The position numbers and the translations under genes were made by a program. A stretch of 64,000 nt of DNA, from positions 2,596 to 66,595 of the forward strand of contig JACCVQ010000133.1 of NCBI GenBank assembly GCA_013698095.1. The letters run 5' to 3'. Below the pieces are notes generated by a model that saw nothing but the letters and a program-made list of their open reading frames with translations, was not told the DNA's origin and did no database searches. The DNA comes from Chloroflexota bacterium. Lineage in GTDB: Bacteria; Chloroflexota; Limnocylindria; Limnocylindrales; CSP1-4. Shown in pieces: positions 1,040-33,831 of the stretch. Position 1 is the stretch's first letter, and the number at the start of each line of letters is the position of its first letter.

Positions 1040-2665
1040 TCACGGACAGACGATGCGGAAGACCCGCGTGTCGACAATGGCCGCGGCGTCGGAGGGGTCC
1101 GTCGGCGTCCCGATGTCCACCGGCTCGAAGCACGCTGCATCGGCCCCGCCGGCCGCGAGGACGCCGGGCCACCCTCCGTGGTCCGTGCTGCTGACGATCA
1201 GCGTTCGGGCGCCGAAGGTTGACGCAAGGTCGACCACGCTGGACGGACTCTCGGCGGGCAGCGCCAGGGAATTCACGCCGGTTGCGGCAGCAAGCCAGAT
1301 CGGAAAGTCGGTGACGATCGGGCCGAGCGTGGCGAGCGGGGTTCCGGCGGCGGTCATCTGCCGTTCGAGCGCCGAATAGCGCGCCTCGACGCTCCGCGAG
1401 TTGCCGCCGAACGACGGGAAGAGCACGGCGCTGAACAGGAGCGCACCGCTGACGGTCAACGCCGGTGCGAGCCAGGCCACCGGATTCGTCCACGCTCGTC
1501 GCAGCCCGATTGCCGCGAGCAGGCGGTCCAGCCCGAGCAACGCCGCGATGACGAGCAGGACATGGACAGGACCCGCGGCGTGAAGGAACGTTCCCCACGT
1601 CGTTGCGACCGGAAAGGCCAGGCTGGTCACGAGGAACGTGATGCCGCCGACCAGCATCACGGCCCGGAGCGACCGCAGACGGACAGCCAGCGGCAGCGCG
1701 ACGAGTCCAACCAGGGACAACGGCGCGCCCGGCAGGAGCAGGACGCTGAACAGGTTGTGGCCGAGTCCTTCGACGCGCATCTCGAGCAGCCGGGCCGGGC
1801 CCACGGCGAGATACCGACTCATCGTGGGTGGGTCCTGCCAGGCGAAGATGTCGAACCCGGTGACCGACAGGGCGTTGGCGAGCGCCTGACCGGGTAGGGG
1901 GTTGCCGAAGACGAGCCAGTCGCGGATCGCCCACGGAGCGAAGATCAGGAGCGCAATCGCACCTGGAACAGCGATCAGGCCGACGCGGGTTGCGCGCGGT
2001 GCGCGGATCCCCGTCGATGCGATGACGGCCCATGCAAGGCCGATCCAGACCGCCTCATTCCGGGTGAGCGCCGCCAGCCCGATCAGGACGCCGAGGCCGA
2101 GAAGTCGTCGATCCACCCATCGGATCGCCTCTCCCGCGGCGCTGAGCCGGGTCATCAACAGGCACGCGCCGAGGGCGAGGGCCGCAAACAGCATCGTCGA
2201 GTCCGGCAGGGTTGAGTGGAGGAGCAGCGGAAGGTAGACGGCGCACGTCAAGCCCGTCCCGATGGCAAGGGTCCGTGCCCTGCCCTTCGGCAGTCCCTTC
2301 TCCGCTGCAACGTCGGCCGCGATGCGCCATGCCAGCACCGGAATGAGGGAGCCGACGATGACCGGCACCAGTTGGGCGACCCTGAAGCTGGTGCCCAGGA
2401 CCAGCATCGGCAACGCGGACAGGAATGTCGGAAGCGGCAGCCAGACCTCGAAGGCGGGCCGCGGGAAGATCAGCGGCGGCGTCTGGTAGCTCCACAGGGC
2501 GTCGGAGACCAGGCCGCGGCCCTCGACCAGCGCCCGTGACGCGGAGACGTAGTAGGCCGTGTCCTCCGGGATCGGAAACACCACGAACGACGCCGTGACT
2601 GTCCGGACAACGACCGAGATGAGAAACAGGCAGACCGCGGCCTGGACGGCCTCGCGACGCGTCAC
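1040..2665 (-). CDS. GT-C fold membrane glycosyltransferase, ArnT/PMT-like (PMT_2 type)
   Basis: ORF 1040..2707. GTG at 2665 overlaps the upstream stop (GTGA, 2662-2665), so 2665 is the preferred start. It has a multi-TM N-terminal body with FPIPEDTAYYVSASRALVEGRG near TM1, followed by a soluble C-terminal domain of about 130 aa. This layout is typical of polyprenyl-P-sugar dependent GT39/GT83-like enzymes. Confidence 0.72.
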   Translation of the reverse strand: MTRREAVQAAVCLFLISVVVRTVTASFVVFPIPEDTAYYVSASRALVEGRGLVSDALWSYQTPPLIFPRPAFEVWLPLPTFLSALPMLVLGTSFRVAQLVPVIVGSLIPVLAWRIAADVAAEKGLPKGRARTLAIGTGLTCAVYLPLLLHSTLPDSTMLFAALALGACLLMTRLSAAGEAIRWVDRRLLGLGVLIGLAALTRNEAVWIGLAWAVIASTGIRAPRATRVGLIAVPGAIALLIFAPWAIRDWLVFGNPLPGQALANALSVTGFDIFAWQDPPTMSRYLAVGPARLLEMRVEGLGHNLFSVLLLPGAPLSLVGLVALPLAVRLRSLRAVMLVGGITFLVTSLAFPVATTWGTFLHAAGPVHVLLVIAALLGLDRLLAAIGLRRAWTNPVAWLAPALTVSGALLFSAVLFPSFGGNSRSVEARYSALERQMTAAGTPLATLGPIVTDFPIWLAAATGVNSLALPAESPSSVVDLASTFGARTLIVSSTDHGGWPGVLAAGGADAACFEPVDIGTPTDPSDAAAIVDTRVFRIVCP

Positions 2666-4323
2666 GGTGTCACGTCGCGGAAGTCCGCGGTCGCGACGAC
2701 CGAGCACCGCCGGTCGGCATCACTCAGGCAGATCGGATAGAGAGCGATACGCGGCGGACCGCCATCAGTTCCGGGAATCGTGAAGACCGGCGCCCCGATC
2801 CATGACGGTCGACTGTCGCCGCGCAGGACGGGGGCCATGGAGGTCGCGATCTCATCGCGCTCGAGGACGAGCCACGCCGTGCGATACGCGGTTGCGATCT
2901 CGCGCTGCGTCTCGATCGAGTCATTGGTCGTGACGACGCCGCCTCGGCCGGTGAGATAGCGATAGCCCGCGGCGTCGATCGTCAGGAGGCGGTCATCGGC
3001 CGCGGCGCCCGCGATGTCGAGGGCGGCCGCCAGCGTCAGGCGTGCCTGACGCTTCTCATTCCAATCGGCATCGACGACCACCGTCCCGACCAACGCCGCG
3101 ACGATTCCGATGGCAACCGTCGCTCCGCTGAAGACATGCGTCGCGTCCTCGCGATTCCACGTCCGACGGCGCGCGGCGATCCACGCGACACCCACGGCGG
3201 TCCCTTCCAGAGCAAGAACGTAGCCATGGGGGACGAGGGCGACAGCCGAGTGGATGAATGTCCCGCCCGGAACGTGAATCGCGGACACGATCGCCGAAAA
3301 CGCGAAGAGCGCGGCTGCGTATCCGAAGAACGGTCCGAAATCCACGGACCGCCGCCGCCGCAATGCGCCGATCAGCATGGGAGGGACGAGCAATCCGGCG
3401 CCGACCAGGGTCGTGAAGATGCCCACCGCCGCCACCAGCCCGCCGACTCGGGTCAGGAGGAGCGGCCCGAGGCCCATCCCCAGGAGATGGTCGAGCGTCG
3501 CGGGTGACGTGATCTGGTTCCACTCCTCGATCGAGCGGATGAAGAGCACTTTGCCCGACGCGGAGGAGGGCGAGATCGAGCCGAACACGACGAGCTGACG
3601 CGCGACCCAGGGCGCCATCACGGCGACGAACAGCCCGGCGCACGCGACCGCCGACCAGACGGGGATGGCCGGACGTCGGGATCCGGACGAGCGCCATGCA
3701 CGCCAGCGATCCCACAGGAAGGCGAGTGCGAGGACGCCGCCCGCCAGGACGCCGTCGTTGCGGGCCAGCGTCGCAAGCCCGACCAGCAGGCCCCCCAGGG
3801 CGAACGATCGAGCATGGCCCTTGAGCCCCCGGGCGCCGAGGAACAGGGCGCCGGCGACGAGCGGCTGGTACAGCGAGAAGTTGTCGGTCTGGACCATGAA
3901 GGGAAAGCTCAAAGCTGGAAACGCGGTCAGGATTCCTGCCCCGACGGACACCACTCGACTCGCGCCCGCTTCGCGACCGATCGCCCACGCGAGAGGAGCG
4001 GCGAGCGCCCCGCTCAACGCGAATGGCACGGCGGCCGCGACCGGGTTCATGCCGAAGATCGTGAGAAACGGCACCTGAACGATCGATGCGAGCGGCATCC
4101 AGTGGGCATTGGATGGGATCGGCAGAACCGGATCGGCAGGAATCCGGCCGCCGACTTCGGCAAAGATCCAGACGAAGTCCACGCTGAATCCGCGGGCCTC
4201 GGCGAGCGATCGGGCGACGTCCGCGTAATAGGCCGAATCGGGGTAGGCCGGATCCGGGTGGAGCCAGATCAGGACAAGTCGGCCGACGAGGGCGAGCAGG
4301 TACAGGGCGAGAGGGGTTCGCAC
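2662..4323 (-). CDS. GT-C fold membrane glycosyltransferase, ArnT/PMT-like
   Basis: ORF 2662..4614 was trimmed to GTG 4323, where the protein-like sequence VRTPLALYLLALVGRLVLIWLHPDPAYPDSAYYADVARSLAEARGF starts. The upstream 97 codons are Arg/Pro/Gln-rich and not protein-like. It is polytopic with a C-terminal soluble domain, the same architecture as the downstream neighbour. Confidence 0.72.
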   Translation of the reverse strand: MRTPLALYLLALVGRLVLIWLHPDPAYPDSAYYADVARSLAEARGFSVDFVWIFAEVGGRIPADPVLPIPSNAHWMPLASIVQVPFLTIFGMNPVAAAVPFALSGALAAPLAWAIGREAGASRVVSVGAGILTAFPALSFPFMVQTDNFSLYQPLVAGALFLGARGLKGHARSFALGGLLVGLATLARNDGVLAGGVLALAFLWDRWRAWRSSGSRRPAIPVWSAVACAGLFVAVMAPWVARQLVVFGSISPSSASGKVLFIRSIEEWNQITSPATLDHLLGMGLGPLLLTRVGGLVAAVGIFTTLVGAGLLVPPMLIGALRRRRSVDFGPFFGYAAALFAFSAIVSAIHVPGGTFIHSAVALVPHGYVLALEGTAVGVAWIAARRRTWNREDATHVFSGATVAIGIVAALVGTVVVDADWNEKRQARLTLAAALDIAGAAADDRLLTIDAAGYRYLTGRGGVVTTNDSIETQREIATAYRTAWLVLERDEIATSMAPVLRGDSRPSWIGAPVFTIPGTDGGPPRIALYPICLSDADRRCSVVATADFRDVTP

Positions 4324-4437
4324 GGCCGGTGCAGCGTAGCACCGGGTGTCCGCCCTTCCGACTGGTACGAAGGGACCATGCAAATCGGACCCGCAGCGGG
4401 CCGCGCCCACTCCTCTGCAGTGCCTAGACTCCGGATC

Positions 4438-5379
4438 ATGGAGCTCGGTCGGCGCTTGTGGCTGGTCCTGCGAGCCATCGCCCCAACGACGGAGCTGCTG
4501 CGCCGAAGCGGCGCGCTGCGCTGGCTGTGGCTCGGCATCGCGGTTCTCTGGGCAGCTGGCGGCATCAGGATGTTCCTCTTCCACATCTCGTACGACCCGT
4601 TCACTGACATCCACGTCTACTACGACGCGGCAGCGCGCCTGAACGCCGGACAGCCGCTCTATCCGCCGGGCGCTCGAATCTATCCGCCGCTCTTCTCGAT
4701 CCTGTTCCGCCCGCTCGCGCTGCTGCCGTTCGAGGTCGCGGCCGCGATCTGGGAAGCGATCCTGGTCGGGGCACTCGGGCTGACGATCTGGCTGATCGGG
4801 ATCCGCAAGCCGGCAACGTGGTGGGCGGTCCTCATCCTCGGCATCGGAATCGGCTGGACCCTTGCGATCGGCCAGGTGGAAGCTCTCGTCGCCCTGCTCC
4901 TCGCCATTGGGAGCCCGTTCACCGTTGCCCTTGCCGCCAACATCAAGATCTTTCCGCTCGCGGTCGGGATCTACTGGGTCGCCCGTGGTGACTGGAAAAA
5001 CGTCGGGCGCCTCGCCGGCTGGACGATGGGCCTCGTCCTCGTCCAGCTCGTCCTCGATCCGGCCAACACCTGGGCCTTCCCCGGCACGCTGGGCCCGGGC
5101 CAGATCGCCTCGGAGGTCGGATCGGAGGGGAACCTCTCGCCGTTCGTCCTGTCACCGATCCTCTGGGCGGTCGTCGTCGCGATCGAGGTCGCGGTCGCGT
5201 TCCGGCTTGGCCGCACTCGTTGGGGATGGCCCGCTGCGGTCGCCCTGGCGGTGCTGTCACCACCGCGAGTCTTCTCCTACAACCTCATGACGCTCCTCGC
5301 CTGCCTGGGCGGCCCGGGCACGACGCGCGTTGAGCGTGACACCGCCGGGCCTGCACCTGCGAGCGGCGAACCTCAATGA
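4438..5379 (+). CDS. DUF2029 / GT87-like membrane glycosyltransferase (short, 313 aa)
   Basis: ORF 3814..5379 was trimmed to ATG 4438 (MELGRRLWLVL...). Diagnostic motifs are FTDIHVYYDAAARLNAGQPLYPP...YPPLF and GQVEALVALLLA...ANIKIFPL, as in PimE-type alpha-mannosyltransferases (family GT87). Confidence 0.68.
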   Translation: MELGRRLWLVLRAIAPTTELLRRSGALRWLWLGIAVLWAAGGIRMFLFHISYDPFTDIHVYYDAAARLNAGQPLYPPGARIYPPLFSILFRPLALLPFEVAAAIWEAILVGALGLTIWLIGIRKPATWWAVLILGIGIGWTLAIGQVEALVALLLAIGSPFTVALAANIKIFPLAVGIYWVARGDWKNVGRLAGWTMGLVLVQLVLDPANTWAFPGTLGPGQIASEVGSEGNLSPFVLSPILWAVVVAIEVAVAFRLGRTRWGWPAAVALAVLSPPRVFSYNLMTLLACLGGPGTTRVERDTAGPAPASGEPQ

Positions 5380-6650
5380 CGACCCTCGATCGCCTCCGCA
5401 AACCGGCGATGGCGCGGATGATCCTCTGGACCGGCGGGCTCTTCGGCTGGATCGCATTCGCGGGCTTGACCTCGCAGATGTACCGGAACACGCCGCCGCG
5501 CGCCGGGTTCGACCTGGAGTTGCTGATCGCGGGCGGGCGCGATGTGGCGGCCGGCATCTCACCCTACGACTCGGCGATGCTCGCCGGCCGGCCCGTGGAC
5601 ATCGCGGACCTCTTCTACGCGTATCCGCCGATCGTGGCCCAGGTGTTCTCGCTGTTCGCGTCCCTCCCGTCGGTCGCGATCTCCGCGATCGCAGTGGCGA
5701 CGGCGACGCTTGCGGCCGTCGTCGTGGGTCGCGCAACGGCTACGGCATTCGGCGGACCTGCGATCGGCCGCGCGGCGATGTTGCCCATGGCGGCGCTGCT
5801 TCCGTTCTGGTTCCCCTACACGGTCGGAATGCTGTTCGGCAACATCGACATCTTCTTCCCCGCGCTCTACGGGCTCATCCTCCTCGCAGTCGTTCGCGGC
5901 CAGGGCGCGGGCTCGGAGCGATGGGTCATCGTGGGCGGACTGGCGCTTGCCCTCGCCTCCATCGTGAAGCTGCATCCGGCCGTCCTCGGCGTGTGGATGC
6001 TCGCGCGCGGGCTCGTCGAGTGGCGCCGCCAGGATCGGGGAGCGCAGCGACAAGCCGTCCCGCGAAGCTGGCGGATCGCAGGCGTGTCGATCGTCGCTGT
6101 GGCCGTGGTCCTCGGGCTCAGCCTCGCGGTCGGCGGTGTTCAGCCGTGGGTCGACTACGTGACCGTGTTGCGGGCGGGGACCTCGGTCGACCTGCTCGAC
6201 ACCCGGAACCTCGGGCCCGGGGTCCAGATCGTGATGCTCCTGGGTCTCGGACCCAGCGCCGTCGGGCCGGTGCAGCTGGTTGTCCTTGTCTCGGCGCTCC
6301 TCGTCGCGATCAGCGCGGCGATGCGCGTCGACGACCCGCTCGAGAGCCTCACCTGGGCGGCAACCGCCTCGTTCATCGTCCTGCCGGTGACCTGGTTCCA
6401 CCACTTCGCGGCGCTCATCCCGTTCGGGATCGCGGCTCTCGCCCGCGGCGCGACCGCCGACCCGGCGTCGCGAAGGCAGCTCTGGATCCTGCTCGGGCTG
6501 ACCTTCGCGATCATAACGGTCGGCTTTGCCGGACCGCCGACTTGGCTGCTCGTCCCCGTGTTCATCGCGGCCATGCGGATCAGCCGGACGCGGTCTGCGC
6601 CGCAACCGTCCCAGGAACCGGAGCCTCGGCTCGCGCAGGTCGGTGGCTGA
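5376..6650 (+). CDS. DUF2029 / GT87-like membrane glycosyltransferase
   Basis: ATGA overlap with the upstream stop (5376-5379). Contains GFDLELLIAGGRDVAAGISPYD...FYAYPPIVAQ, then many TM helices and ASIVKLHPAVL (the K-x-x-P motif region of DUF2029). Confidence 0.7.
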   Translation: MTTLDRLRKPAMARMILWTGGLFGWIAFAGLTSQMYRNTPPRAGFDLELLIAGGRDVAAGISPYDSAMLAGRPVDIADLFYAYPPIVAQVFSLFASLPSVAISAIAVATATLAAVVVGRATATAFGGPAIGRAAMLPMAALLPFWFPYTVGMLFGNIDIFFPALYGLILLAVVRGQGAGSERWVIVGGLALALASIVKLHPAVLGVWMLARGLVEWRRQDRGAQRQAVPRSWRIAGVSIVAVAVVLGLSLAVGGVQPWVDYVTVLRAGTSVDLLDTRNLGPGVQIVMLLGLGPSAVGPVQLVVLVSALLVAISAAMRVDDPLESLTWAATASFIVLPVTWFHHFAALIPFGIAALARGATADPASRRQLWILLGLTFAIITVGFAGPPTWLLVPVFIAAMRISRTRSAPQPSQEPEPRLAQVGG

Positions 6651-6735
6651 CGGCGACGCATCCGAGGAGCTCGCGGCGCACCCCAGGCAGATCGCGGCGG
6701 CGGGGAACTTTCGCGCGCCCGAAGAAGCGTCGAGC

Positions 6736-8409
6736 TCATGGTGCCGGGAGCGCCGGGCAGGCCGGATCCACGGCGCCGTACAGGTACAACGGTTCACTCG
6801 GACCGACCACGAGGTACTGCCGGTACGCAGTCGCGTCAAGGTGGACGAGGTGGTACCCGTCAGCGTCGAGCGGGCTGTTCGACAGCACGGCGCAGGGGCG
6901 GGCCGCCAGAAGGAAATTCCAGTACCACGTCAGGCCACGGGCTGGCGAGTCGGCATTCGCCGGCTCGCCACGGTGGAAGCCCGCCCACTCGTAGCCCGCG
7001 TCCACGGTCTCCGGCGCATAGCCCAGGCCCACGGCGGCTGCACCGGCGCGCCAGCGTGCCGCGTCATAGGCGAACGAGTTGGCGCCGATCACCAGGGCTG
7101 AGGCGCCGAGCCACGCCAGCGCCGCGTGGCCGAGCGGTCGGCTCCACCGCGGGCGGCCCGCCCCCGCGGCTCCGGACGCGAGGAGGATCGCCACAATCGG
7201 AATCATTGGAACCAGGTAGCGGTCGAGCGGGTAGGCAGCCATCGAGATCAGGGCGCCGAGTTCCGCGACGTAGCCGATGGCGAACGCCAGGAGCAGCGCG
7301 GTCGGGGTGTGAGCGATGGAGCCCGCCCGCTTCCATGCGGCCCGGATCGTGCGGACGCCGGCCAACTGCCGCGCGGCCCAGCGGACCACGACGGCTGCCA
7401 GCAGGACGGCCGCGAGCACGGCGAGAGCCTCCGACATGGACCAGGCGATCGGATGGATCAACGGGTCGCGCGTCCCGCTGAGCATGGCGTTGCCGATCAG
7501 CCCCTCGGGCATCCAGAACTGGCCGACCAGCGGCCCGATCGTGGGCACGCTGAACGCGATCGCCACCAGCCCGACGCCCAAGAGCAGGTGCAGCGGGCTG
7601 AACGAGGCGAGACGACGCCCGACCGCCGGAACCAGTGCCGGGAGCAGCCCCGCCGCGAGGGTCGTCAGCGCCGGGCCGAGCAGGATCAGCCGCACGGGTT
7701 CCGGTGGCCGGCCGAGACCACCGTTGATCGCGGCTGAGTCGACAAGCGCGAGGACCGTCGCGACGGCTGCCGCCCCCAGGACCGCCAAGGTCAGAATCAG
7801 GAGGCGCTCGCCGGGTCTGCTCCGGACCAACGAAACGGCAAGCACAGCGACGGGTGCGGCGATCGCGAACTCGCGGATGCTCACCCCAAGGACGCCGACC
7901 AGGATGGACGCGGCCAGGGCTGATCGACGCCCGCTGCGGAGCCATGCCATCCCCAGCCATAGCGACAGCATCTCGAGCGCAAACGCTGGGCCGTCGGTCA
8001 TGAAGCTCGCCGACTCGCGCGCGAACCCGGGGAATGTGATCACCAGGACGGCGGCAAGCACCGCAGCCCGGCGGCCCGCCCCGTATCGCCCGAGCAGGTA
8101 CGTGGCGACGATTCCCAGGGCCGCCATGGCCAGGCCGAATGCCGTGTAGGCCCAGCTGGCACCGCCGGCCAGCCACAGGAGCGGCTGCACGAGCACGATC
8201 TGCCCCACGGCGGCGGCCGTGTGACCCGGTATCGCGATGCTGCCGGTGCGATAGAGGCTGTCGGCGCCGCGGATGTAGACCCAGTCGTCATTGCTCGGGA
8301 CGCCCACCGCGCCAGCGGCTGCGGCGAGCGCCAGCGGCGCCCCGACACCGACCAGCAGCAGCGCGGCAAGGGCCACGGCATCGCCCCGGTCGAGGCGCGA
8401 CTCCGTCAC
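6736..8409 (-). CDS. GT-C fold membrane glycosyltransferase, ArnT/PMT-like (paralogue A of a tandem pair)
   Basis: ORF 6736..9243 was trimmed to GTG 8409, which forms a GTGA overlap with the stop of the upstream paralogue. Motifs include PSNDDWVYIRGADSLYRTG, FMTDGPAFALE and VSIREFAIAAP. The C-terminal soluble domain ends in RPCAVLSNSPLD...PLYLYGA. Confidence 0.75.
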   Translation of the reverse strand: MTESRLDRGDAVALAALLLVGVGAPLALAAAAGAVGVPSNDDWVYIRGADSLYRTGSIAIPGHTAAAVGQIVLVQPLLWLAGGASWAYTAFGLAMAALGIVATYLLGRYGAGRRAAVLAAVLVITFPGFARESASFMTDGPAFALEMLSLWLGMAWLRSGRRSALAASILVGVLGVSIREFAIAAPVAVLAVSLVRSRPGERLLILTLAVLGAAAVATVLALVDSAAINGGLGRPPEPVRLILLGPALTTLAAGLLPALVPAVGRRLASFSPLHLLLGVGLVAIAFSVPTIGPLVGQFWMPEGLIGNAMLSGTRDPLIHPIAWSMSEALAVLAAVLLAAVVVRWAARQLAGVRTIRAAWKRAGSIAHTPTALLLAFAIGYVAELGALISMAAYPLDRYLVPMIPIVAILLASGAAGAGRPRWSRPLGHAALAWLGASALVIGANSFAYDAARWRAGAAAVGLGYAPETVDAGYEWAGFHRGEPANADSPARGLTWYWNFLLAARPCAVLSNSPLDADGYHLVHLDATAYRQYLVVGPSEPLYLYGAVDPACPALPAP

Positions 8410-27077: not shown

Positions 27078-28096
27078 AGATCCTGATCACCGGCGCCGCC
27101 GGGTTCATCAACGGCTATCTCGTCCCGGAGCTGCTCGAGGCCGGCCACGAGGTCATCGGGCTCGACGACTTCAGCAAATACGGCCGCCTGACGAAGTCGT
27201 ACGACCATCACCCGCGTTACCGCTTCTTCGAGGGCGACGCCAAGGACGTCGGGCTGATGACCGAGCTGGCGGCAGACGTCGACCAGGTCGTGGCCGCCGC
27301 TGCGATGATTGGTGGGATCAGCTACTTCCACGAGTTCGCGTACGACCTGCTGGCCGAGAACGAGCGGATCCTCGCCTCGACGTTCGATGCGGCGATCGCC
27401 GCCCACAAGACCGGCCGGCTGAAGCGGATCATCGTCGTGAGCTCGTCGATGGTCTACGAGTCGGCGACGGTGTTCCCGACCCCGGAAGGCGCCGAGAAGA
27501 CCTCGCCGCCGCCGATCTCGACCTACGGCTTCCAGAAGCTCGCGTCCGAGTATTTCGCGGCCGGTGCCAGGGAGCAGTTCCAGCTGCCGTACACGATCGT
27601 CCGACCGTTCAACTGCGTCGGGATCGGCGAACGCCGGGCCACGCGCGACACCGACATCATGTCCGGCAACGTGAAGCTGGCTCTCTCGCACGTCGTACCG
27701 GATCTCGTGCTCAAGGTGCTCAAGGGCCAGGACCCGCTCCACGTCCTGGGCGACGGGTCGCAGGTCCGCCACTACACGTACGGCGGCGACCTCGCTCATG
27801 GCATCCGCCTTGCGATGGAGTCGCCGGCCGCCGAAAACAACGACTTCAACCTGTCCACGGCCCGCTCGACGACCGTCCTCGAGCTGGCCGAATGCATCTG
27901 GTCGAAGATCCACACCGACGGCCGCCCGTTCAACTACACCTCGGACACGCCGTTCAAGCACGATGTCCAGCTCCGCGTCCCGGACGTCCGGAAGGCGAAG
28001 GAAGTCCTCGGCTATGAGGCGACGACGTCGCTCGAGACGATGCTCGACGAGGTGATCCCGTGGATCCGCGACGAGGTCGCGGCGGGGCGGCTGTGA
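27074..28096 (+). CDS. NAD-dependent epimerase/dehydratase (extended SDR)
   Basis: ORF 26951..28096 was trimmed to GTG 27074 (GTGA overlap). Contains VKILITGAAGFINGYLVPELLEAGHEVIGLD, SSSMVY and YGFQKLASE (Y-x3-K). Confidence 0.85.
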   Translation: MKILITGAAGFINGYLVPELLEAGHEVIGLDDFSKYGRLTKSYDHHPRYRFFEGDAKDVGLMTELAADVDQVVAAAAMIGGISYFHEFAYDLLAENERILASTFDAAIAAHKTGRLKRIIVVSSSMVYESATVFPTPEGAEKTSPPPISTYGFQKLASEYFAAGAREQFQLPYTIVRPFNCVGIGERRATRDTDIMSGNVKLALSHVVPDLVLKVLKGQDPLHVLGDGSQVRHYTYGGDLAHGIRLAMESPAAENNDFNLSTARSTTVLELAECIWSKIHTDGRPFNYTSDTPFKHDVQLRVPDVRKAKEVLGYEATTSLETMLDEVIPWIRDEVAAGRL

Positions 28097-28842
28097 GCGC
28101 GAGCGGCATCCCTCCCGAGCTCTCGATCGTCCTGCCCGTGTACAACGAGGGCGAGGGGGTCGAGCCGGTCCTCCGGGCACTGTCGGCCGGGATCAAGACG
28201 CCCCACGAGCTGGTCGTCGTGTACGACTTCGACGAGGACACCACCGTGCCCGTCGTGGCCCGGCTCGCACACGAGATCCCGAACCTGCGCAGCCTCCGCA
28301 ACGATCTCGGTCGGGGCGTGCTCAATGCGATGAAAGCGGGCATCGCCGGCACGACTGGACCGTTTGTCCTGATCTCGATGGCCGACGGCTCCGACGAGCC
28401 CCACGTCGTCGACCCGATGGTCGCGCTCGCCCGCGACGGTGCCGACATCGTGTCGGCCAGTCGGTACATCAAGGGTGGCCATCAGGTCGGCGGGCCACGC
28501 CTGAAGCGACTGATGAGCCGAGCGGCCGGGCTCAGCCTGCATCACCTCGCCGGCGTCCCGACCCACGACCCGACAAACAACTTCAAGCTCTACCAACGGA
28601 CGTTTCTGGCGACGACTCCGATCGAGAGCAGTGCCGGCTTCGAGCTGGCCCTGGAGCTGACGGTGAAGGCCACCCTCGCCGGCAGCCGCATCGCCGAGAT
28701 CCCCACCACGTGGCGCGACCGGACGGCCGGTCAGAGCAACTTCAAGCTCCGCAAGTGGCTACCGCACTATCTCCACTGGTACCGCGTCGCATTTGCCGGC
28801 CGCATTCGTCGGCTCGCCGGCCGCCGCCCTCGAGCCCGCTGA
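28093..28842 (+). CDS. GT2 polyprenyl-phosphate glycosyltransferase (DPM1 / ArnC-like)
   Basis: ORF 28060..28842 was trimmed to GTG 28093 (GTGA overlap). Contains LSIVLPVYNEGEGV, VVVYDFDEDTT, ISMADGSDEP, ASRY..GG, DPTNNFKLY and ELTVKATLAGSRIAEIPTTWRDR. Confidence 0.85.
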   Translation: MSASGIPPELSIVLPVYNEGEGVEPVLRALSAGIKTPHELVVVYDFDEDTTVPVVARLAHEIPNLRSLRNDLGRGVLNAMKAGIAGTTGPFVLISMADGSDEPHVVDPMVALARDGADIVSASRYIKGGHQVGGPRLKRLMSRAAGLSLHHLAGVPTHDPTNNFKLYQRTFLATTPIESSAGFELALELTVKATLAGSRIAEIPTTWRDRTAGQSNFKLRKWLPHYLHWYRVAFAGRIRRLAGRRPRAR

Positions 28843-30066
28843 CTCGACTGCCTCGGTGCGGAGAATCGCGATCGTCGCCGCGAGGATCGCGAGCATCGCG
28901 AGGGACCCGGCGACTCCGAGCGGACCGCCGACCGGGAGGGTCGCGCCGACCTCCGGAGTCGGCGGCACGGCGGCCAGCAGGTTCAGCGTGAACACGACCC
29001 CGAATACGAGGGCCAGCCAGGCCGCCCGACGATCCGGGAAGGCGAGAGCGAGGAACGCCAGCGCCCCGAAGGCGTAGCGCTCGTGCATCGTCGTCAGCAG
29101 GCAGAACGCGACGAGGACGGACGCAGCGAGGCCATACGCCAGCCCCCGCGCGGAGCGCGCTCGATACGCCAGGCCGAAGACAGCCAGCTCGCCGAGCAGG
29201 GCCAGGCCGTATCCAACGTGGCGCAGGGTCAGCGAGCCGACGACCGCGCCCTGGTCGGATACGAACTGACCGCCCGCGAAAGCCTCCTGGACCAGCCACC
29301 ACGCGTTCCACGCCCGGAGCGAGAGGATCGCGAAGATGTCGCCCTGGTACTCGGCGAGGTTCCGGGCGTAGCCCTGGACCCCGCCGGCCGCGAGGAACGG
29401 CAGCCACAGCAGGACGATGACTGCGGCCCCGACCAGCCCGGCCCGGACGGCGCCAAGCCAGCCGTCGCGGGCCAGGAACCACGCCCCGAATGGCACGAGG
29501 AATGGCAGGGCCTGCGGCTTGGTCATCAGGGCGACCGCCAGCGCCGCAGCGGCCCAGAGCGAATGGCCGCGGACCGCCAGGACGTAGGCGACGGCGCCGC
29601 CGAGCACGTAGATCGACTCGTACTGGCCCCACCACGCGCTGACGTCGATGACGGCCGGGTGAAGCAGGATCGCGGCACCGCCGAGGATCGCCCAGCGCCG
29701 GGTAGCCCGGAGGTGCCAGATGACGACGAGGCCAAGGGCGATGTCGGCCAGGCTGGCCGGCGCCTTCATAATCGCCCGGATCCCGGGCTCGGCCGATGTC
29801 GTCACCGTTCGGAACGCCGGCTCGATGGCCGCGAGGACGCCCCAGATCCAGGCCATGACGGGCGGGAACGACAGGTTCTGGTCGTACGCGTTGCCGAAGG
29901 AGCCAGTCGCGAGGCCGTGAACCCACAGGACGAACTGGTCGAGGTCGCCGGTCAGGCCCGGCGTGGGCCACAGGGCGATCCGAATGGCGATGGCGAGCGC
30001 GACGATCGCGGCGACTGCCCCGATGAACGGGATCCGGGGCGTCGCGTCACGGGTGCGTTCACTCAA
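28759..30066 (-). CDS. GT-C fold membrane glycosyltransferase, Gpi18/PIG-V-related or ALG-like (COG5542-type)
   Basis: ORF 28759..30465 was trimmed to TTG 30066; the start is uncertain. Contains IRIALWPTPGLTGDLDQFVLWVHGL, NLSFPPVMAWIW, SAWWGQYESIY, ALMTKPQALPFL, and TTMHERYAFGALAFLAL near the C-terminus. The 3' end overlaps the convergent GT2 gene by 84 nt. Confidence 0.6.
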   Translation of the reverse strand: MSERTRDATPRIPFIGAVAAIVALAIAIRIALWPTPGLTGDLDQFVLWVHGLATGSFGNAYDQNLSFPPVMAWIWGVLAAIEPAFRTVTTSAEPGIRAIMKAPASLADIALGLVVIWHLRATRRWAILGGAAILLHPAVIDVSAWWGQYESIYVLGGAVAYVLAVRGHSLWAAAALAVALMTKPQALPFLVPFGAWFLARDGWLGAVRAGLVGAAVIVLLWLPFLAAGGVQGYARNLAEYQGDIFAILSLRAWNAWWLVQEAFAGGQFVSDQGAVVGSLTLRHVGYGLALLGELAVFGLAYRARSARGLAYGLAASVLVAFCLLTTMHERYAFGALAFLALAFPDRRAAWLALVFGVVFTLNLLAAVPPTPEVGATLPVGGPLGVAGSLAMLAILAATIAILRTEAVESAGSRAAAGEPTNAAGKCDAVPVEIVR

Positions 30067-30450: not shown

Positions 30451-30543
30451 CCCGACGGGTTGCACCCGGCCAGGACTATGCGGCTATTCGAAACGGCGGC
30501 GCGGTCACGTTGGGCCGCCCCGCACGCCCCACCCCGGCGACCG

Positions 30544-31641
30544 CTACGCCTGCGCCGTCGACCAGTAGCGCTCGGCGGCTCCGCCTGACCCGTCGAGCAG
30601 GGCGACCTTCCGGGCATACGCCCGGACCTGTCGAGCCATCTCCTGGGTCCCCTCGAACAGCCGATCGATCTGGCTCTCGTACAGGTTGATGCCGCTGATC
30701 TTGCGCTCGAGCTGATCGCCGATGTCGGCGAATTCGGGACTCAGGTGGACGCCGTCAGGCAGGTCGGCGAAGGCGGTTCGCGGCAAGTCCTCGAGACGCG
30801 AGAAGTCGTTCCACCAGGCGTAGGGGAAGTCCTCGTAGAACGTGACGATTCCGGCGTAATCCGGTCCGGGCATGACCCAGCGCCGGCCCTCGCCCAGGAG
30901 CTTCACTCCCACGTCGCGACAGAGTTGATGGTCGACGTGGTTGCCGACGCCGAGCGGCAGGTACAGTTTCTGCGGCTCGAGCCGGACGATCTCGCGGAGC
31001 AGGATCTCGTACGGCGCGGCGTCGTCGGCGCGCGGCGCATTCAGCAGCTCCTCGTCGTTCTCGTACCCGCGGAACACGGCGTCGGGCAGGTCGAGGAACA
31101 CGATCGAGGCTTCGGCAAAGGCCGCGAACATCTCATCTTCGAGACGCCGTTTCGCCATCAGCTCGCCCGCGGCGGCGGCATCGACCAGCTCGTCGGTCGC
31201 GACCGCGCCCTGCGTGCTGAGCGTGTCCATCACCGGCTGACCGGCCAGCGACTCGGACCGGATGCTCGCCCGGCGGTACCACGACGAGCGCTGCCAGAAG
31301 CGCTTGGCGGCGGCGTCGGCGTCGACCTGGGTGGCCTCGAGCCGGTCGTCGGTGGCCGCCCAAGCCGGAAGCACCTCGGGATCGCCGTAGACCGGGAAGT
31401 CGGCCGCGATGTGGGAGCGGTTGAACGCTTCCGACACCGGCCACATCGTCTTCGTCCCGAAGCCGAGCGCCTCGCGCTGGTAGGTCGTGAGGCCGTCGCC
31501 GTTCTCGCGCTCGGCCCGGCCCGTACCCGAGAACACCGTCAGGATCGTCACGTTCTGGCCGAGCTCGCGGAGGCTCGCGATCAGCCCGCCGCAGGAGAGC
31601 GCAACGTCGTCGGGATGGGGGGCGACGAAGACGTGGGTCAT
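30544..31641 (-). CDS. PIG-L / LmbE family N-acetylglucosaminyl deacetylase with a large internal insertion
   Basis: ORF 30544..31746 was trimmed to ATG 31641 (MTHVFVAPHPDDVALSCGG). The second metal motif GVGNHVDHQ appears only at about residue 245 of 365. Confidence 0.8.
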   Translation of the reverse strand: MTHVFVAPHPDDVALSCGGLIASLRELGQNVTILTVFSGTGRAERENGDGLTTYQREALGFGTKTMWPVSEAFNRSHIAADFPVYGDPEVLPAWAATDDRLEATQVDADAAAKRFWQRSSWYRRASIRSESLAGQPVMDTLSTQGAVATDELVDAAAAGELMAKRRLEDEMFAAFAEASIVFLDLPDAVFRGYENDEELLNAPRADDAAPYEILLREIVRLEPQKLYLPLGVGNHVDHQLCRDVGVKLLGEGRRWVMPGPDYAGIVTFYEDFPYAWWNDFSRLEDLPRTAFADLPDGVHLSPEFADIGDQLERKISGINLYESQIDRLFEGTQEMARQVRAYARKVALLDGSGGAAERYWSTAQA

Positions 31642-31806
31642 GGCCGGGCGAGTATAGCGAGGCGCCTCCCCGCTCCGTGCCCTTGGGTCGGAGCGCCCTC
31701 GCAATTCGACATCCTCAACTGGTATCGTCCCGCGGGGCGAACGCACCGGGATGTGTCGCCCGCCCGTGAACGTCCCGTGCGACAGGTGGAATCGAGGGGA
31801 GAGGCA

Positions 31807-33831
31807 GTGCCGTCGCTTGGGCTCGCCGACGAACTCGCCATCACGATCGCCAACCCGGACAGCCTCCTCGCGATCGGGCTGGCGCTGCTGCTGGGCGCCG
31901 GCTGCTGGCTGCTCGGATTCTGGATTGCCCGGACCGTCGGTCTCTTCCGGCCCGACGCACCTGCAGGCGAGATGCTCGGGGTCGGGCTCGCCTTCGGGTT
32001 GATGGTGGTGACCGCCTGGTGGGCAGCGATCTGGTCCGGCGGACGGAGCTCGTTCGTACCGGTGGCGATCGGCTTCGCCCTGGCGCTCGTTCTGGCGATC
32101 GCGCGACGTCCGCCGGCGCCGGCCGTCGCCGTGTCAGTGTCGGATGCGAGTGACGGCGACGAAGGGACGACCCAATCGCGATCCGCCCGCCGACCGTCCC
32201 TCCCGCTGACGGCCGTCGGGGCAGGCGTCTTCGTGGTCGCCGTCGCCCTTCTGTACGGCTCGACCATGTCGCTGAGCCCCAGAGACGGCGTTCAGCCGGT
32301 CGAGAAGACCGACATCGCCTTCTACGCGGTCCTTGGGCGGGACCTTGTCACCACCGGCACGGAGACGAACACGCTGCCCTCCGGCTTCGACGATCTGGCT
32401 GGGGCCTCGCCGCAGGTCTGGTACCACTGGGGCGAGCTGTGGCTGGCCTCGGCGGTCATCAAGCTCTTCGGAATTGCCCCGCTCGGCGCGCGCTACCTGG
32501 TGGTGCTGCCGTTGTTGCTCCTCGCGACGGCGGCCATGACCGGAACCTTCGTCCGTCGCCTGGCGGGGACCTCGTCTCCCGCCGCCTATCTGTTCGGCTT
32601 CGTCGTCTGCCTGCTCCTCGCGCCCGTGCCGCTCCTGGCCGGCCCGTTCTTCAGCGTCTGGGCGGCCGGCATGATCTACGGCATCGCCGTGTTCGGCCTC
32701 GCGGCGGTCGCCGTCCTGTGCGTGATCCATGCCCTCGCGATCCAGAGCACGCTCCAACCCTCCTGGACCCTCGCCGTATTCCTGGGGAGCGCGGTCGCCT
32801 TCGTCCTGCCAGCGCACATCATCGTCGCGCTGCTCGGGCTGGTCGGGCTCGGGGTCCCCGTCGCCATCCGGATCGGCGGGTCCCTCGTCGCGACGCGTCG
32901 GCCGCCCAGCGCCTCTCCGCTCTGGTGGCGAACGCTGATCGCGGCCGCGGCCGCTGTCCTGTCCACCGTCGCCTGGGGCGCGATCACCGATCACGGTCTC
33001 GGAGAGGGCGGACCTCTTGTCGGGATCACGCCGTTCAACGACGCCTGGCGCGACACGGTCCTCGTTGTGACGCTTGGCGCGGGCCTGCTGCTGGCAATCC
33101 CGATCGCGGGGATTCTCTCTCACCGGGGCAATCGCCTGCTCTTCGACGCCTGCGTCGGCACGGTCGCGATGGTGGTCGCGGGCGCGTTGCTGTGGGGCTG
33201 GCGAGTGGCCGCCTTCAACACGTTCTACCTCTTCTTTGCCGCCATCGCCGTCTTTGCGACGCCGATCGCCGCCGCGGGGGCCTGGTGGCTGATGCAACGG
33301 CTTTGGGCCGCCCGGCGTCGCGGATTGGCGATCGGCATCGCCACGCTCTGCTTCCTCCAGCTGGAGTTCGGCTTGCTGATCAGTCTCAGCCGGCTCCACG
33401 GACAAGACTCCGTGTACGAGCCGATTCCGGTCGCCGTCCTCGCGGCCATCGAGCGCCTGCCACCGGACGCAAAGCTCGCGTATGCCTGCCAGTCGTTCGA
33501 GGAGATCTCGTTCGTCAATTCGAAGCTGCTCAGCATCGACGCCCACACGGCGCGGCGGATCGTACCGATGTGCTTCCAGGCGGATGTCAACGGCCCGCTC
33601 TTGGGCGCGGAGGTCGACGATGCGGTCCCGGACGCCGGGTTCGTGTTCGCGCCTCAGGCGGCCCTCTATCCCGACTCAAGCACCCGCCCATCGTCGGCGG
33701 CCGTGGCGGCTTTCCTCAGGGCCCACGGCATCGAATACATCTATGCCGACGCTGGGCACCCGAATACTCTCGTCACCGGGGCAATTCCGGTCGAGACCGT
33801 CGGCAGGTTCGAGCTGCTTCAGGTCCCCTGA
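31807..33831 (+). CDS. large polytopic membrane protein with C-terminal soluble domain (unassigned; candidate GT-C glycosyltransferase or polymerase)
   Basis: ORF 30745..33831 was trimmed to GTG 31807, which is preceded by GGGGAGAGG. About 14 hydrophobic helices follow. An extracytoplasmic-looking loop reads SPRDGVQPVEKTDIAFYAVLGRDL...QVWYHWGELW, and the C-terminal 150 aa are hydrophilic. Confidence 0.55.
   Translation: MPSLGLADELAITIANPDSLLAIGLALLLGAGCWLLGFWIARTVGLFRPDAPAGEMLGVGLAFGLMVVTAWWAAIWSGGRSSFVPVAIGFALALVLAIARRPPAPAVAVSVSDASDGDEGTTQSRSARRPSLPLTAVGAGVFVVAVALLYGSTMSLSPRDGVQPVEKTDIAFYAVLGRDLVTTGTETNTLPSGFDDLAGASPQVWYHWGELWLASAVIKLFGIAPLGARYLVVLPLLLLATAAMTGTFVRRLAGTSSPAAYLFGFVVCLLLAPVPLLAGPFFSVWAAGMIYGIAVFGLAAVAVLCVIHALAIQSTLQPSWTLAVFLGSAVAFVLPAHIIVALLGLVGLGVPVAIRIGGSLVATRRPPSASPLWWRTLIAAAAAVLSTVAWGAITDHGLGEGGPLVGITPFNDAWRDTVLVVTLGAGLLLAIPIAGILSHRGNRLLFDACVGTVAMVVAGALLWGWRVAAFNTFYLFFAAIAVFATPIAAAGAWWLMQRLWAARRRGLAIGIATLCFLQLEFGLLISLSRLHGQDSVYEPIPVAVLAAIERLPPDAKLAYACQSFEEISFVNSKLLSIDAHTARRIVPMCFQADVNGPLLGAEVDDAVPDAGFVFAPQAALYPDSSTRPSSAAVAAFLRAHGIEYIYADAGHPNTLVTGAIPVETVGRFELLQVP

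Follow-up and report, generated by a model that had tools for sequence, protein, structure and literature searches.

What does a bacterium build with a conserved island of about 49 kb that encodes about 13 membrane-embedded sugar-adding enzymes together with suppliers of lipid-linked sugars? The island lies in a DNA stretch of 64,000 nucleotides (the window) from an uncultured soil and freshwater bacterium of the Chloroflexota, class Ca. Limnocylindria, as judged by homologues and synteny. The MAG GCA_020063865.1 matched the window, and locus L001 was a copy of it.

Organization and Conservation of the Island

Gene calling by codon-position GC gave the same coordinates as the original prediction, with uncertain start codons in g01 (1040-2665 or 1040-2707) and g20 (28060 or 28093). 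As shown in Table 1, the predicted crowding of about 13 large polytopic membrane proteins into 33 kb was reproduced: 13 were encoded between positions 1040 and 33831, where they occupied 18,267 of 32,792 bp (56%). The island reached to about 49.5 kb, including the CDP-3,6-dideoxyhexose/ulosonic-acid block and the GtrB/GtrA genes. The synteny comparison proposed with the prediction showed that the island recurred as a unit in other Limnocylindria genomes, with the same flanking genes on either side and a variable gene content. Tandem paralogue expansions were found in related genomes, with two to four copies of g23 and three to seven of GT87 genes. Except for the neighbouring CDP-3,6-dideoxyhexose block, no island enzyme reached an NCBIfam equivalog cut-off, and a literature search found no paper describing the locus.

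Table 1. Features of the island, their positions in the window and the evidence for their assignment.
Gene	Position	Strand	Assignment	Evidence
g01	1040-2707	-	PMT_2/ArnT-like GT-C (by transitivity), ~13 TM	27% identity to g02, E = 1.7e-15
g02	2662-4323	-	PMT_2-family GT-C	PF13231, 29.1 bits, above gathering threshold
g03	4438-5379	+	Short-form GT87	PF09594, 59 bits
g04	5376-6650	+	GT87	PF09594, 54 bits; weak PIG-U match PF06728, 24.8 bits
g05	6736-8409	-	PMT_2-family GT-C	PF13231, 27.5 bits, above threshold
g06	8406-10250	-	PMT_2-like GT-C, g05 paralogue	50% identity to g05, E = 4e-151
g07	10470-11306	+	GT2 polyprenyl-phosphate-sugar synthase-like, no TM helix	PF00535
g08	11287-12456	+	GT87	PF09594, 82 bits; 41% identical to g15
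g09	12453-13724	+	Highly conserved unclassified polytopic protein, tentatively GT-C	
g10	13792-16104	+	Fused MFS/spermidine-synthase-like membrane protein	PF07690; NF037959, 95.7 bits, above cut-off
g11	16172-18499	+	Second fused membrane/spermidine-synthase-like protein	NF037959, 50.5 bits, above cut-off; ~15 TM helices
g12	18581-19816	+	Acetyltransf_6 (FemAB-like GNAT)	PF13480, 100 bits
g13	19747-21018	+	Cytoplasmic GT4 glycosyltransferase	PF00534, PF13692
g14	21087-21941	+	Short-form GT87	PF09594, 46 bits
g15	21938-23080	+	GT87	PF09594, 66.5 bits
g16	23080-24384	+	FAD oxidoreductase (PRK07233 type), accessory	PF01593; NF005560, 421 bits
g17	24381-25808	+	Unclassified, 8+ TM, C-terminal soluble domain, tentatively GT-C	
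g18	25881-27077	+	NDP-sugar 6-dehydrogenase	TIGR03026, 281 bits, above cut-off
g19	27074-28096	+	SDR nucleotide-sugar epimerase or decarboxylase	PF01370
g20	28060-28842	+	GT2 polyprenyl-phosphate-sugar synthase-like, no TM helix	
g21	28759-30066	-	GT87/Gpi18-like GT-C, very conserved	Homologues with PF09594 or PF03155 (Alg6_Alg8)
g22	30544-31746	-	Divergent PIG-L/LmbE-type deacetylase	PF02585, 55 bits, N-terminal motif only
g23	31807-33831	+	Pfam-less 13-TM predicted GT-C, ~150-aa periplasmic C-terminal domain	AlphaFold and Foldseek
Sugar block	33866-47990	+	Variable nucleotide-sugar block	CDP-3,6-dideoxyhexose pathway, NeuB/KdsC-like pair, TPP enzyme, methyltransferases
g37, g38	48022-49532	-	GtrB/PgfS/ArnC-like GT2 with 2 C-terminal TM helices; GtrA-family flippase candidate	

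Assignment of the Polytopic Membrane Proteins

All five genes predicted to belong to GT87 (g03, g04, g08, g14 and g15) exceeded the gathering threshold of Pfam PF09594, by which the family was assigned. To our knowledge, every characterised GT87 enzyme transfers mannose from polyprenyl-P-mannose to acceptors of the PIM/LM/LAM type. In the alignment (g08 numbering), D51 and K183 were kept in five of five proteins and Y55 in four, and g03 had D, Y and K at all three columns. This pattern agrees with D58, Y62 and K195, the essential residues of PimE (PMC12041525). Homologues of g14 in L003, L005 and L020 were 279-311 aa long. The predicted Gpi18/ALG-like protein g21, which carries a GDLDQF motif, had no significant Pfam match itself, and its placement was supported by its homologues. 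More than 1,200 were found; the 120 listed were 66-86% identical, many of them matched one of the two families given in Table 1, and their JGI name was 'Gpi18-like mannosyltransferase'.

Among the five proteins predicted to be ArnT/PMT-like, g01, g02, g05 and g06 were retained by PF13231 or paralogy, while this label was not supported for g09, which had no sequence match. No Pfam match was obtained for g01, and g06 scored 20.6 bits against PF13231, below the threshold of 26.1 bits. The motifs were EDTAY after TM1 in g01, D29-S-A-Y in g02 and DDWVY in g05, and L022 and L028 contained g02 homologues with 60% identity.

g09 matched nothing in Pfam, in NCBIfam or by sequence in the PDB. It had more than 1,700 homologues, and the 120 listed were 71-87% identical, none with a Pfam match. 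An invariant RGDFFYLAD motif followed TM1, and the best folds for its weak AF2 model (pLDDT 56) were ALG12, PimE and AftD. For g17, 18,167 representative clusters were obtained with no Pfam family, and one of 31 family members matched PMT_2. It carries a D28-L-A-Y motif, and hhalign against a PMT_2-like profile gave a weak match (38% probability, E = 3e-4 over 207 columns). Neither g09 nor g17 matched a transporter family. g17 and g23 had both been left unclassified; g17 is still tentative, whereas g23 is now predicted from its structural model to have a GT-C fold. This AF2 model (pLDDT 81, pTM 0.85) matched AglB, PglB, AftA (TM ~0.5) and DPY19 in Foldseek with E <= 6e-5, and E166, D169, Y173 and WYHWGE were invariant.

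In total, 11 of the 13 proteins were firmly GT-C (five GT87, four PMT_2/ArnT-like, one GT87/Gpi18-like and the Pfam-less g23), and g09 and g17 are tentatively included. An acidic and aromatic motif after a TM helix was present in all 13. Because none of the 13 was a transporter and neither an NCBIfam equivalog model nor a paper in the searched library matched the locus, the prediction of a glycosyltransferase locus unlike any recognised one was upheld.

Lipid-Linked Sugar Synthases and Accessory Genes

The two predicted GT2 polyprenyl-P-sugar synthases, g07 and g20, were by sequence closest to ArnC and DPM synthase. The best PDB matches of g07 were ArnC (1.7e-9) and DPM synthase, and its best NCBIfam match, dolichyl-phosphate hexose transferase, was far below the cut-off. 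g20 best matched Pyrococcus DPM synthase 5mlz (2.6e-19), followed by ArnC and GtrB. Because both lack TM helices and scored far below every equivalog cut-off, polyprenyl phosphate is given as their putative acceptor. The GtrB-like GT2 enzyme predicted at 48 kb was confirmed as g37, with PgfS (NF047588, 188 bits, full length) as best NCBIfam match and ArnC at 126 bits; it adjoins g38, which matched PF04138 (GtrA).

The 770-aa polytopic fusions g10 and g11 were absent from the original prediction. g10 is a candidate flippase or modifier, and in L035 and L036 an MFS_1 protein (PF07690) of 781-784 aa occupied the corresponding site close to the g09 homologue. g12 was kept in L009, L018, L020, L035 and L036; among the fetched loci, g16 was found only in L001. 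The candidate primer enzyme g13 reached no NCBIfam equivalog. PDB matches of g18 to UDP-ManNAc and UDP-Glc dehydrogenases were about equal, and those of g19 included both 4-epimerases and UDP-GlcA decarboxylase. The coordinates of g18, g19 and g20 overlap or abut, suggesting translational coupling. g22 adjoined the g21 homologue in L037 and occurred with g21 in L006, L008, L015, L021 and L027. The sugar block, in which TIGR02623, TIGR02622 and NF011936 (RfbH) all matched above cut-off, was missing from L006, L008, L009, L021 and L037. On the flank, g40 has one TM helix and a C-terminal (A/S)PS-repeat tail, with a like protein at the same position in seven of nine related loci, and g44 is lipoprotein-like with an S/P/T-rich linker. 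Within the window, Pfam showed no Wzx/Wzy, ABC exporter or phosphoglycosyl-transferase initiator, and no genes for phosphatidylinositol or lipid-anchor synthesis, an LCP ligase or backbone synthesis were seen.

Comparison with Known Systems

As in the mycobacterial and corynebacterial assembly of PIM/LM/LAM and arabinogalactan (Ppm1, PimE/GT87, Emb/Aft), a DPM-type synthase stands beside multiple GT87 and other extracytoplasmic GT-C enzymes, and priming by a cytoplasmic GT4 is possible. The catalytic Asp/Tyr/Lys pattern of GT87 is kept, and AftA, together with oligosaccharyltransferases, has the fold closest to the g23 model. However, Chloroflexota are another phylum, the mycobacterial genes are dispersed and not gathered in one compact island, and the window contains no decaprenyl-P-arabinose pathway (UbiA, DprE1/2), Emb/AftD sequence homologues or PI-related genes. 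Furthermore, the island adds the Pfam-less g09, g17 and g23, the MFS/spermidine-synthase fusions and a PIG-L-type deacetylase.

The three-component scheme (PMC11127046; Citrobacter GT136 system), with a lipid-P-sugar donor, a flippase and a GT-C, is also present, with g37, g38 and GT-C enzymes as in GtrA/GtrB/Gtr* and CsbB/GtcA/YfhO. However, the island has 13 GT-C enzymes for three synthases, two of them without TM helices, and only one GtrA, and it is conserved in the lineage in long operons, whereas those systems are mobile or serotype-specific cassettes. The g18-g22 neighbourhood resembles the Arn (L-Ara4N) and Bordetella Lgm (GlcN) lipid A modification systems, in that a sugar dehydrogenase, SDR, ArnC-like GT2, de-N-acylase and ArnT/PMT_2-like GT-C occur together. 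However, the island lacks a formyltransferase domain, ArnB in its core, an ArnD-type enzyme and ArnE/F, its deacetylase is PIG-L-type, and all scores were far below equivalog cut-offs. We know of no lipid A synthesis in Chloroflexota. Actinobacterial Ppm1/Pmt and streptococcal Pgf systems of protein O-glycosylation share a PMT_2-like GT-C, a PgfS-like synthase and adjoining Ser/Pro-rich extracytoplasmic tails, but the island has no GT39 PMT domain (PF02366) or MIR domain and many more GT-C enzymes.

Proposed Function of the Island

With polyprenyl-phosphate sugars as donors, the enzymes of the island probably build or extend a glycoconjugate of the cell envelope on the outer side of the cytoplasmic membrane. 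This reading builds on protein families or folds, motifs, synteny and lineage, from which we infer donor sugars, flippases, acceptor and product. Nucleotide sugars would come from the cytoplasmic enzymes g18 and g19 and, in this genome, from the CDP-3,6-dideoxyhexose/ulosonic-acid block. g07, g20 and g37 would place single sugars on polyprenyl phosphate, like DPM synthase, ArnC and GtrB, and g38, perhaps also g10 and g11, may flip the lipid-linked sugars. Outside the membrane, up to 13 GT-C enzymes would each attach a sugar, through a defined linkage, to an acceptor. This acceptor is most likely a glycan that is anchored in the membrane or linked to the wall and is primed in the cytoplasm, with g13 as a possible primer enzyme. 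The product would then be a hexose-rich, perhaps mannose-rich, lipoglycan or wall polysaccharide, by analogy with mycobacterial LM/LAM/arabinogalactan. The lack of Wzx/Wzy, an ABC exporter and an initiator in the window fits stepwise extracytoplasmic building and not a classical O-antigen or capsule pathway.

The variable gene content is as compatible with decoration modules as with a single pathway. Semi-independent modules of three components (GT2 synthase, flippase and GT-C) would attach side-chain sugars to a backbone glycan whose synthesis is encoded elsewhere in the genome. As in Gtr-type seroconversion, they would diversify the cell surface under pressure from phages or predators. The three GT2 enzymes with a GtrA gene, the paralogue expansions, the presence or absence of the sugar block and the window without backbone-synthesis genes favour such modules. 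However, g09 and g21 showed unusual conservation, with 66-87% identity among hundreds of sequences from metagenomes, which argues for core and not diversifying roles, and the 13:3 ratio of GT-C to GT2, the single GtrA and the long co-directional operons suggest a pathway, so that we consider these modules possible but doubtful. The conserved Ser/Pro-rich membrane proteins beside the island suggest protein acceptors instead, and the streptococcal Pgf system is a precedent (PMC12041528). The GT-C enzymes, the PMT_2-like ones among them, would then mainly draw on polyprenyl-P-sugars and O-glycosylate Ser/Thr/Pro-rich disordered extracytoplasmic regions of membrane proteins and lipoproteins, a reading consistent with four PMT_2-like genes, the PgfS match of g37, the tail of g40 with its counterparts and the linker of g44. 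It is unlikely, because PMT_2 (PF13231) is a family distinct from PMT/GT39, Pfam found no MIR domains, 13 GT-C enzymes far exceed the need of any known such system, and g40 is tied to the island by position only. The six GT87/Gpi18-like enzymes also argue against it; we know of no protein-glycosylating members of these families.

A GPI-like anchor, in which a PIG-A/PimA-like GT4 adds HexNAc to a lipid, a PIG-L-type enzyme de-N-acetylates it and DPM-dependent GT-C mannosyltransferases (Gpi18/PIG-V-like, GT87) extend it, would explain g13, the PIG-L domain of g22 as companion of g21 in related loci, the DPM-synthase-like g20, the weak PIG-U match of g04 and the JGI name of g21 homologues. However, g13 matched no PIG-A, PimA or MshA equivalog, g22 resembles PIG-L at its N-terminal motif only and lies 10 kb from g13 in a different operon, and the window encodes no inositol-lipid synthesis, ethanolamine-phosphate transferase or transamidase catalytic subunit, which makes such an anchor very unlikely. 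It is still more improbable that the GT-C density is inflated because the unclassified polytopic proteins are mostly transporters or other non-glycosyltransferases. The MFS-type g10 and g11, the poor g09 model and the lack of a significant family match for g09 or g17 would fit, but Pfam, the annotation of homologues or structure placed 11 of 13 in GT-C, transporter families matched neither g09 nor g17, GT-C folds ranked first even with the poor g09 model, and both proteins kept a first-loop Asp-x-x-Tyr motif. This alternative is largely refuted, and at most two of 13 (g09 and g17) could drop out.

Assembly of an envelope glycoconjugate outside the cytoplasmic membrane is thus preferred. In our best reading, the machinery follows the logic of mycobacterial LM/LAM/arabinogalactan assembly and of Gtr-type three-component systems but is orthologous to neither, and the island points to an undescribed envelope glycan.

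Gene content and GT-C assignments

The window has a GC content of about 70%, and genes were called by their codon-position GC signature, with GC1, GC2 and GC3 of about 0.70, 0.50 and 0.87, respectively, in real genes. The calls, numbered g01 onwards along the window, reproduced the gene coordinates of the original prediction, with 23 genes in the GT-C region listed in the table. The 13 polytopic proteins proposed there as GT-C glycosyltransferases (g01–g06, g08, g09, g14, g15, g17, g21 and g23) cover 18,267 of its 32,792 bp (56%). This observation is confirmed: Pfam, homology and AlphaFold/Foldseek gave 11 firm and two tentative (g09 and g17) GT-C assignments, and one family label was corrected. 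Two large membrane proteins, g10 and g11, had been missed from the list.

Positions of the features discussed (in the window, except for the last row)
Feature	Position	Strand	Description
Left end	3 to about 1000	−	HisKA_3 histidine kinase
GT-C region	1040–33831		13 polytopic proteins and accessory genes
g07	10470		GT2 synthase-like
g10	13792–16104	+	About 770 aa
g11	16172–18499	+	About 770 aa
Stretch shared with L001	21807–43831		22 kb
g16	23080–24384	+	PRK07233-type FAD oxidoreductase, 421 bits
g17	24381–25808	+	Unmodelled, widespread membrane-protein family
g20	About 28 kb		GT2 synthase-like
Sugar block (g24–g36)	33866–47990	+	Variable insert
g37	48 kb		GT2 synthase-like
g40	50258–51331	−	One-TM protein
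Right-hand regulator	55742–59161	−	1,139-aa AAA/BTAD/TPR regulator
g44	59246–60253	−	Lipoprotein-like
Insert in L036	14887–19569 of L036		1,560-aa secreted S8 peptidase (Fn3, Big_7)

By hydropathy scan, the 13 proteins have 5–13 TM helices each (5–8 in two short GT87 forms), the GT-C criterion being 7–13. A D/E-x-x-Y/F-type motif follows TM1 in 12 of them and TM4 in g23. Its acidic and aromatic residues are invariant across family alignments A1, A2, A4, A5, A6 and A7, and the place of the acidic motif relative to the fold was confirmed for the g23 model only. Folds were modelled for g23 and g09, and apart from g17 the other proteins are placed by Pfam.

The five predicted GT87 genes were borne out by Pfam, as g03, g04, g08, g14 and g15 scored 59, 54, 82, 46 and 66 bits, respectively, against PF09594 (gathering threshold 25). 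The essential residues of PimE are D58, Y62 and K195, namely the catalytic Asp, a Tyr four positions later that forms a hydrogen bond, and a Lys that binds phosphate (PMC12041525). The GT87 proteins of the window mirror this arrangement: the columns of D51, Y55 and K183 of g08 hold D in 5/5, Y in 4/5 and K in 5/5, a pattern match to the published residues and not a direct alignment with the PimE sequence. The g21 protein is linked to GT87 through its homologues only. Its family has more than 1,200 matches (66–86% identical among the 120 listed), many of which carry precomputed GT87 or Alg6_Alg8 matches and are called "Gpi18-like mannosyltransferase" by JGI, and the Gpi18-like label it had been given is therefore reasonable.

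The PMT/ArnT-like set held in part. Against PMT_2 (PF13231, COG1807; threshold 26.1), g02 and g05 scored above the threshold with 29.1 and 27.5 bits, respectively, and g06 below it with 20.6. Two are placed here through their relatives: g06 is 50% identical to g05, and g01, which has no Pfam match, is 27% identical to g02 (E = 1.7e-15). The fifth member, g09, found no support. Searches of PDB sequences with the alignment profiles of g17, g21, g09 and the PMT_2-like proteins returned nothing useful, the PMT_2-like profile (A5) finding no PDB sequence. Comparison of the in-window families by hhalign gave low probabilities throughout: 35% for g21 with GT87, 38% for g17 with the PMT_2-like profile, and about 3% or less for all g09 comparisons and for g17 with GT87 and g23.

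Candidate new GT-C families

No Pfam or CAZy-type model currently covers the families of g09, g17 and g23, three candidate new GT-C families. For g23, more than 265 full-length homologues were found, and none of the 120 listed had an informative Pfam match or name. The AlphaFold model of g23 (31-sequence alignment, pLDDT 81, pTM 0.85) resembled AglB, PglB, AftA (TM about 0.5), DPY19 and Pmt4 in Foldseek, with probability 1.0 for AglB, PglB, AftA and DPY19. On this basis g23 is assigned to the GT-C enzymes, its last 150 or so residues forming a C-terminal domain in the periplasm. A regex search found no WWDYG-like motif, as in GT66 PglB/AglB/STT3, in this domain; its sole match in g23 was WYHWG at residue 205, in a loop of the membrane domain. 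The likeness to AftA is one of fold only, at 13% identity. Genes of this family stand as two to four tandem paralogues in several Limnocylindria MAGs (loci L004, L013, L015, L032 and, on one contig, L010/L026/L031), and the window has one.

The label "ArnT-like" for g09 was not upheld, as no Pfam, NCBIfam or PDB sequence match was found. The family is large. Because the usable alignment was 71–87% identical (among the matches listed), the AlphaFold model was poor (pLDDT 56), and its top Foldseek results, ALG12 (E = 0.02), a GPI-transamidase subunit, PimE and AftD, are therefore taken as a hint only. Tentatively, g09 may be a GT-C protein, though not an ArnT-like one. The g17 family comprises 18,167 representative clusters (50% identity, E ≤ 1e-3), or 8,353 at E ≤ 1e-10; it has no Pfam model, and no significant Pfam match was found in 31 diverse members. 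The only links to PMT_2 were the hhalign result, over 207 N-terminal columns, and one weak match of a member, and g17 is tentatively placed in GT-C.

Donor supply and accessory genes

The three predicted GT2 synthase-like genes, including the GtrB-like one at g37, were recovered as g07, g20 and g37 by PDB or NCBIfam likeness. The closest match of g20 was Pyrococcus dolichol-P-mannose synthase (2.6e-19), followed by ArnC and GtrB, and g07 was closest to ArnC and DPM synthase. Neither has TM helices, and human DPM1 and the catalytic domain of mycobacterial Ppm1 likewise lack them. In NCBIfam, g37 matched PgfS (188 bits) and ArnC (126 bits) over the full length, below the equivalog cut-offs. It has two C-terminal TM helices and adjoins g38, which scored 56.7 bits against PF04138 (GtrA), above threshold. 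A single feature, co-location with these synthases, suggests that the GT-C enzymes would use lipid-phosphate-linked sugar donors.

Directly upstream of g20, and overlapping, are g18, an NDP-sugar 6-dehydrogenase matching both UDP-Glc and UDP-ManNAc dehydrogenase, and g19, an SDR protein matching both UDP-GlcA decarboxylase and 4-epimerase. The g22 protein is probably a divergent PIG-L-type deacetylase; it matched PF02585 with 55 bits over profile positions 1–44 only, and its PDB matches were confined to the N-terminal motif. Its homologue is adjacent to that of g21 in L037, and the two co-occur in several other loci. No enzyme of the 1–33 kb region reached an NCBIfam equivalog cut-off, so that the locus corresponds to no pathway named by NCBI.

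Both g10 and g11 passed the NF037959 cut-off as MFS/spermidine-synthase-like fusions. They sit midway along the GT-C operon and are mutually dissimilar by BLAST; candidate roles are that of a flippase or an aminopropyl or methyl modification. An MFS_1 protein of 781–784 aa takes the corresponding place, close to the g09 homologue, in L035 and L036. The g16 gene is translationally coupled between the GT87 gene g15 and g17. Of the loci fetched, only L001, the copy of the window, has this gene. By analogy with DprE1, and as pure speculation, g16 could oxidise a lipid-linked sugar.

The sugar block

In the sugar block, g24, g26 and g27 scored above the equivalog cut-offs for glucose-1-phosphate cytidylyltransferase, CDP-glucose 4,6-dehydratase and RfbH, respectively. 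After these come genes for a flavin-reductase-like protein (E3-like reductase), an SDR, a NeuB-like synthase, a KdsC-like phosphatase, an acetolactate-synthase-like TPP enzyme, oxidoreductases, an FkbM methyltransferase and a SIS-domain protein. The block encodes a complete CDP-3,6-dideoxyhexose entry pathway and an ulosonic-acid branch, a combination unusual outside Gram-negative O-antigen loci. The TPP enzyme could add a two-carbon branch in the manner of YerE. NeuB and DegT had suggested a pseudaminic or legionaminic acid cluster (33.9–48 kb), which was rejected when NCBIfam identified the CDP-3,6-dideoxyhexose pathway and the NeuB/KdsC-like pair. Related genomes differ in whether they carry the block. 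In several of them, g23 or g22 stands directly before the g37/PCMT/DUF5317-MFS/HD genes, and g24–g36 are therefore a variable insert.

Conservation and flanking genes

A synteny comparison across related genomes, proposed as a check in the original prediction, showed that the island recurs with varying numbers of paralogues. A 22-kb stretch of the window is 99.995% identical to part of JAITZE010000109.1 of MAG GCA_020063865.1 (L001). When the g23 profile was run against GTDB species representatives, 31 loci were recovered, 30 of them from MAGs that bear the labels Ca. Limnocylindria, Ca. Limnocylindrales, Chloroflexota or "uncultured Chloroflexia", and named homologues of g09 and g21 were also labelled Limnocylindrales. 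Within Chloroflexota, Ca. Limnocylindria ranks as a class; its median genome measures 2.39 Mb at 68.9% GC (PMC10608941).

The tblastn synteny table showed a recurrent core from g17 to g23. The left half is kept in L035 and L036, with a GT2 gene, at least one GT87 gene, a g09 homologue, a hypothetical gene and an MFS_1 gene (781–784 aa), and a GNAT gene further on. In ERZ25039492, about 4 kb separate the two halves on contig_1147, where the same flanking genes adjoin them, and the island has thus been inherited as a unit with differing paralogue number; related genomes hold up to seven GT87 copies and two to four g23 copies. An assembly artefact was rejected, as the same order was found in an NCBI MAG, a Logan assembly and related MAG contigs of up to 2.9 Mb. 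In L036 the secreted S8 peptidase gene lies between an MFS fusion and a GT87 gene, and a fragmented version is present in L035.

Two regulators, the histidine kinase on the left and the AAA/BTAD/TPR protein on the right, bracket the island, and homologues of both flank it in L022, L028, L029, L030, L033 and L037. The g40 protein begins with an acidic region rich in Ala, Glu and Pro, has a single TM helix and ends in a tail of about 70 aa with (A/S)-P-S repeats. In seven of nine related loci, a one-TM protein with a tail of 58–91 aa (53–62% Ser+Thr+Pro) stands in the place of g40, between the PCMT and DUF5317-MFS genes. Such proteins are candidate O-glycosylation substrates or wall-spanning stalks. 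The g44 protein, which has no Pfam match, looks like a lipoprotein, with a signal peptide ending in AAAC and then a Ser/Pro/Thr/Gly-rich linker, and is possibly another glycosylation target.

Proposed function and comparison with known systems

The predicted extracytoplasmic glycan assembly is supported at a general level, with homology and gene context as the whole basis for the function proposed. The best-supported model is polyprenyl-phosphate-sugar-dependent extracytoplasmic glycosylation, following the three-component logic defined in PMC11127046. Mycobacterial PIM/LM/LAM and arabinan assembly follow this logic too. The GT2 synthases would charge a lipid carrier with sugars, GtrA and possibly also the MFS fusions would flip the charged carrier across the membrane, and the GT-C enzymes would attach the sugars singly outside it.

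For the acceptor, a lipid- or wall-anchored glycan is favoured because six enzymes are GT87/Gpi18-like, because the cytoplasmic GT4 protein g13 is a possible primer, and because no Wzx/Wzy, ABC exporter or phosphoglycosyl-transferase initiator was found in the window. Protein O-glycosylation, at least by the PMT_2-like enzymes, is a serious rival, given the repeat-tailed g40 beside the island, its counterparts in related loci, and the best match of g37 to PgfS, a streptococcal protein-glycosylation synthase (PMC12041528). The paralogue expansions and variable content also fit a modular "decoration" system. The GT4, PIG-L and Gpi18-like genes point weakly to a GPI-like pathway, whose other components are missing.

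The island would work like the mycobacterial PIM/LM/LAM-arabinan and Gtr-type systems without being orthologous to either. The Gtr-type pair, a GT2 protein with C-terminal TM helices (g37) and a GtrA protein (g38), was found, but no GT-C gene adjoins it, the nearest being g23, 14 kb away. Of the mycobacterial arabinan machinery, Pfam and NCBIfam found no UbiA-type DPPR synthase, DprE1/DprE2 or Emb/Aft sequence homologue in the window. The Arn set is incomplete: with cut-offs of 777 for ArnA and 529 for ArnC, g19 and g20 scored 34.9 and 29.6 bits, respectively, and no formyltransferase, ArnD or ArnE/F is present in the window. Neither GT39 PMT nor the GT66 motif was found in the island, and the literature searches yielded no account of a locus of this kind in Chloroflexota.

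Significance

The cell-envelope architecture of Chloroflexota is poorly understood, and we know of no cultured, biochemically studied member of Ca. Limnocylindria. Actinobacteria have so far provided the best-documented cases of extracytoplasmic lipid-phosphate-sugar chemistry, and 3,6-dideoxyhexoses are otherwise typical of Gram-negative O antigens. It is possible, with the chances somewhat against it, that Ca. Limnocylindria and perhaps other Chloroflexota have a lineage-defining major envelope polymer built almost entirely outside the membrane by at least 13 GT-C enzymes, including the g09, g17 and g23 families, as an independent, non-actinobacterial counterpart of LM/LAM/arabinogalactan with 3,6-dideoxyhexose-type sugars.

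The island of about 49 kb is roughly 2% of the class median genome of about 2.4 Mb (PMC10608941), and a single conserved island with 13 GT-C genes, in an uncultured, small-genome Chloroflexota class, would surprise a glycobiologist. Three large protein families (g09, g17 and g23; g17 alone with about 18,000 clusters at 50% identity) are put forward for classification as new glycosyltransferases. Candidate substrates are the Ser/Pro-rich tails of g40-like proteins, and the gene set is testable by heterologous expression. Class-wide conservation and the dominance of GT-C enzymes suggest that such chemistry makes a major glycoconjugate of the envelope outside the cytoplasm, from lipid-phosphate sugars, and the island offers a concrete handle on the question of the Chloroflexota envelope.
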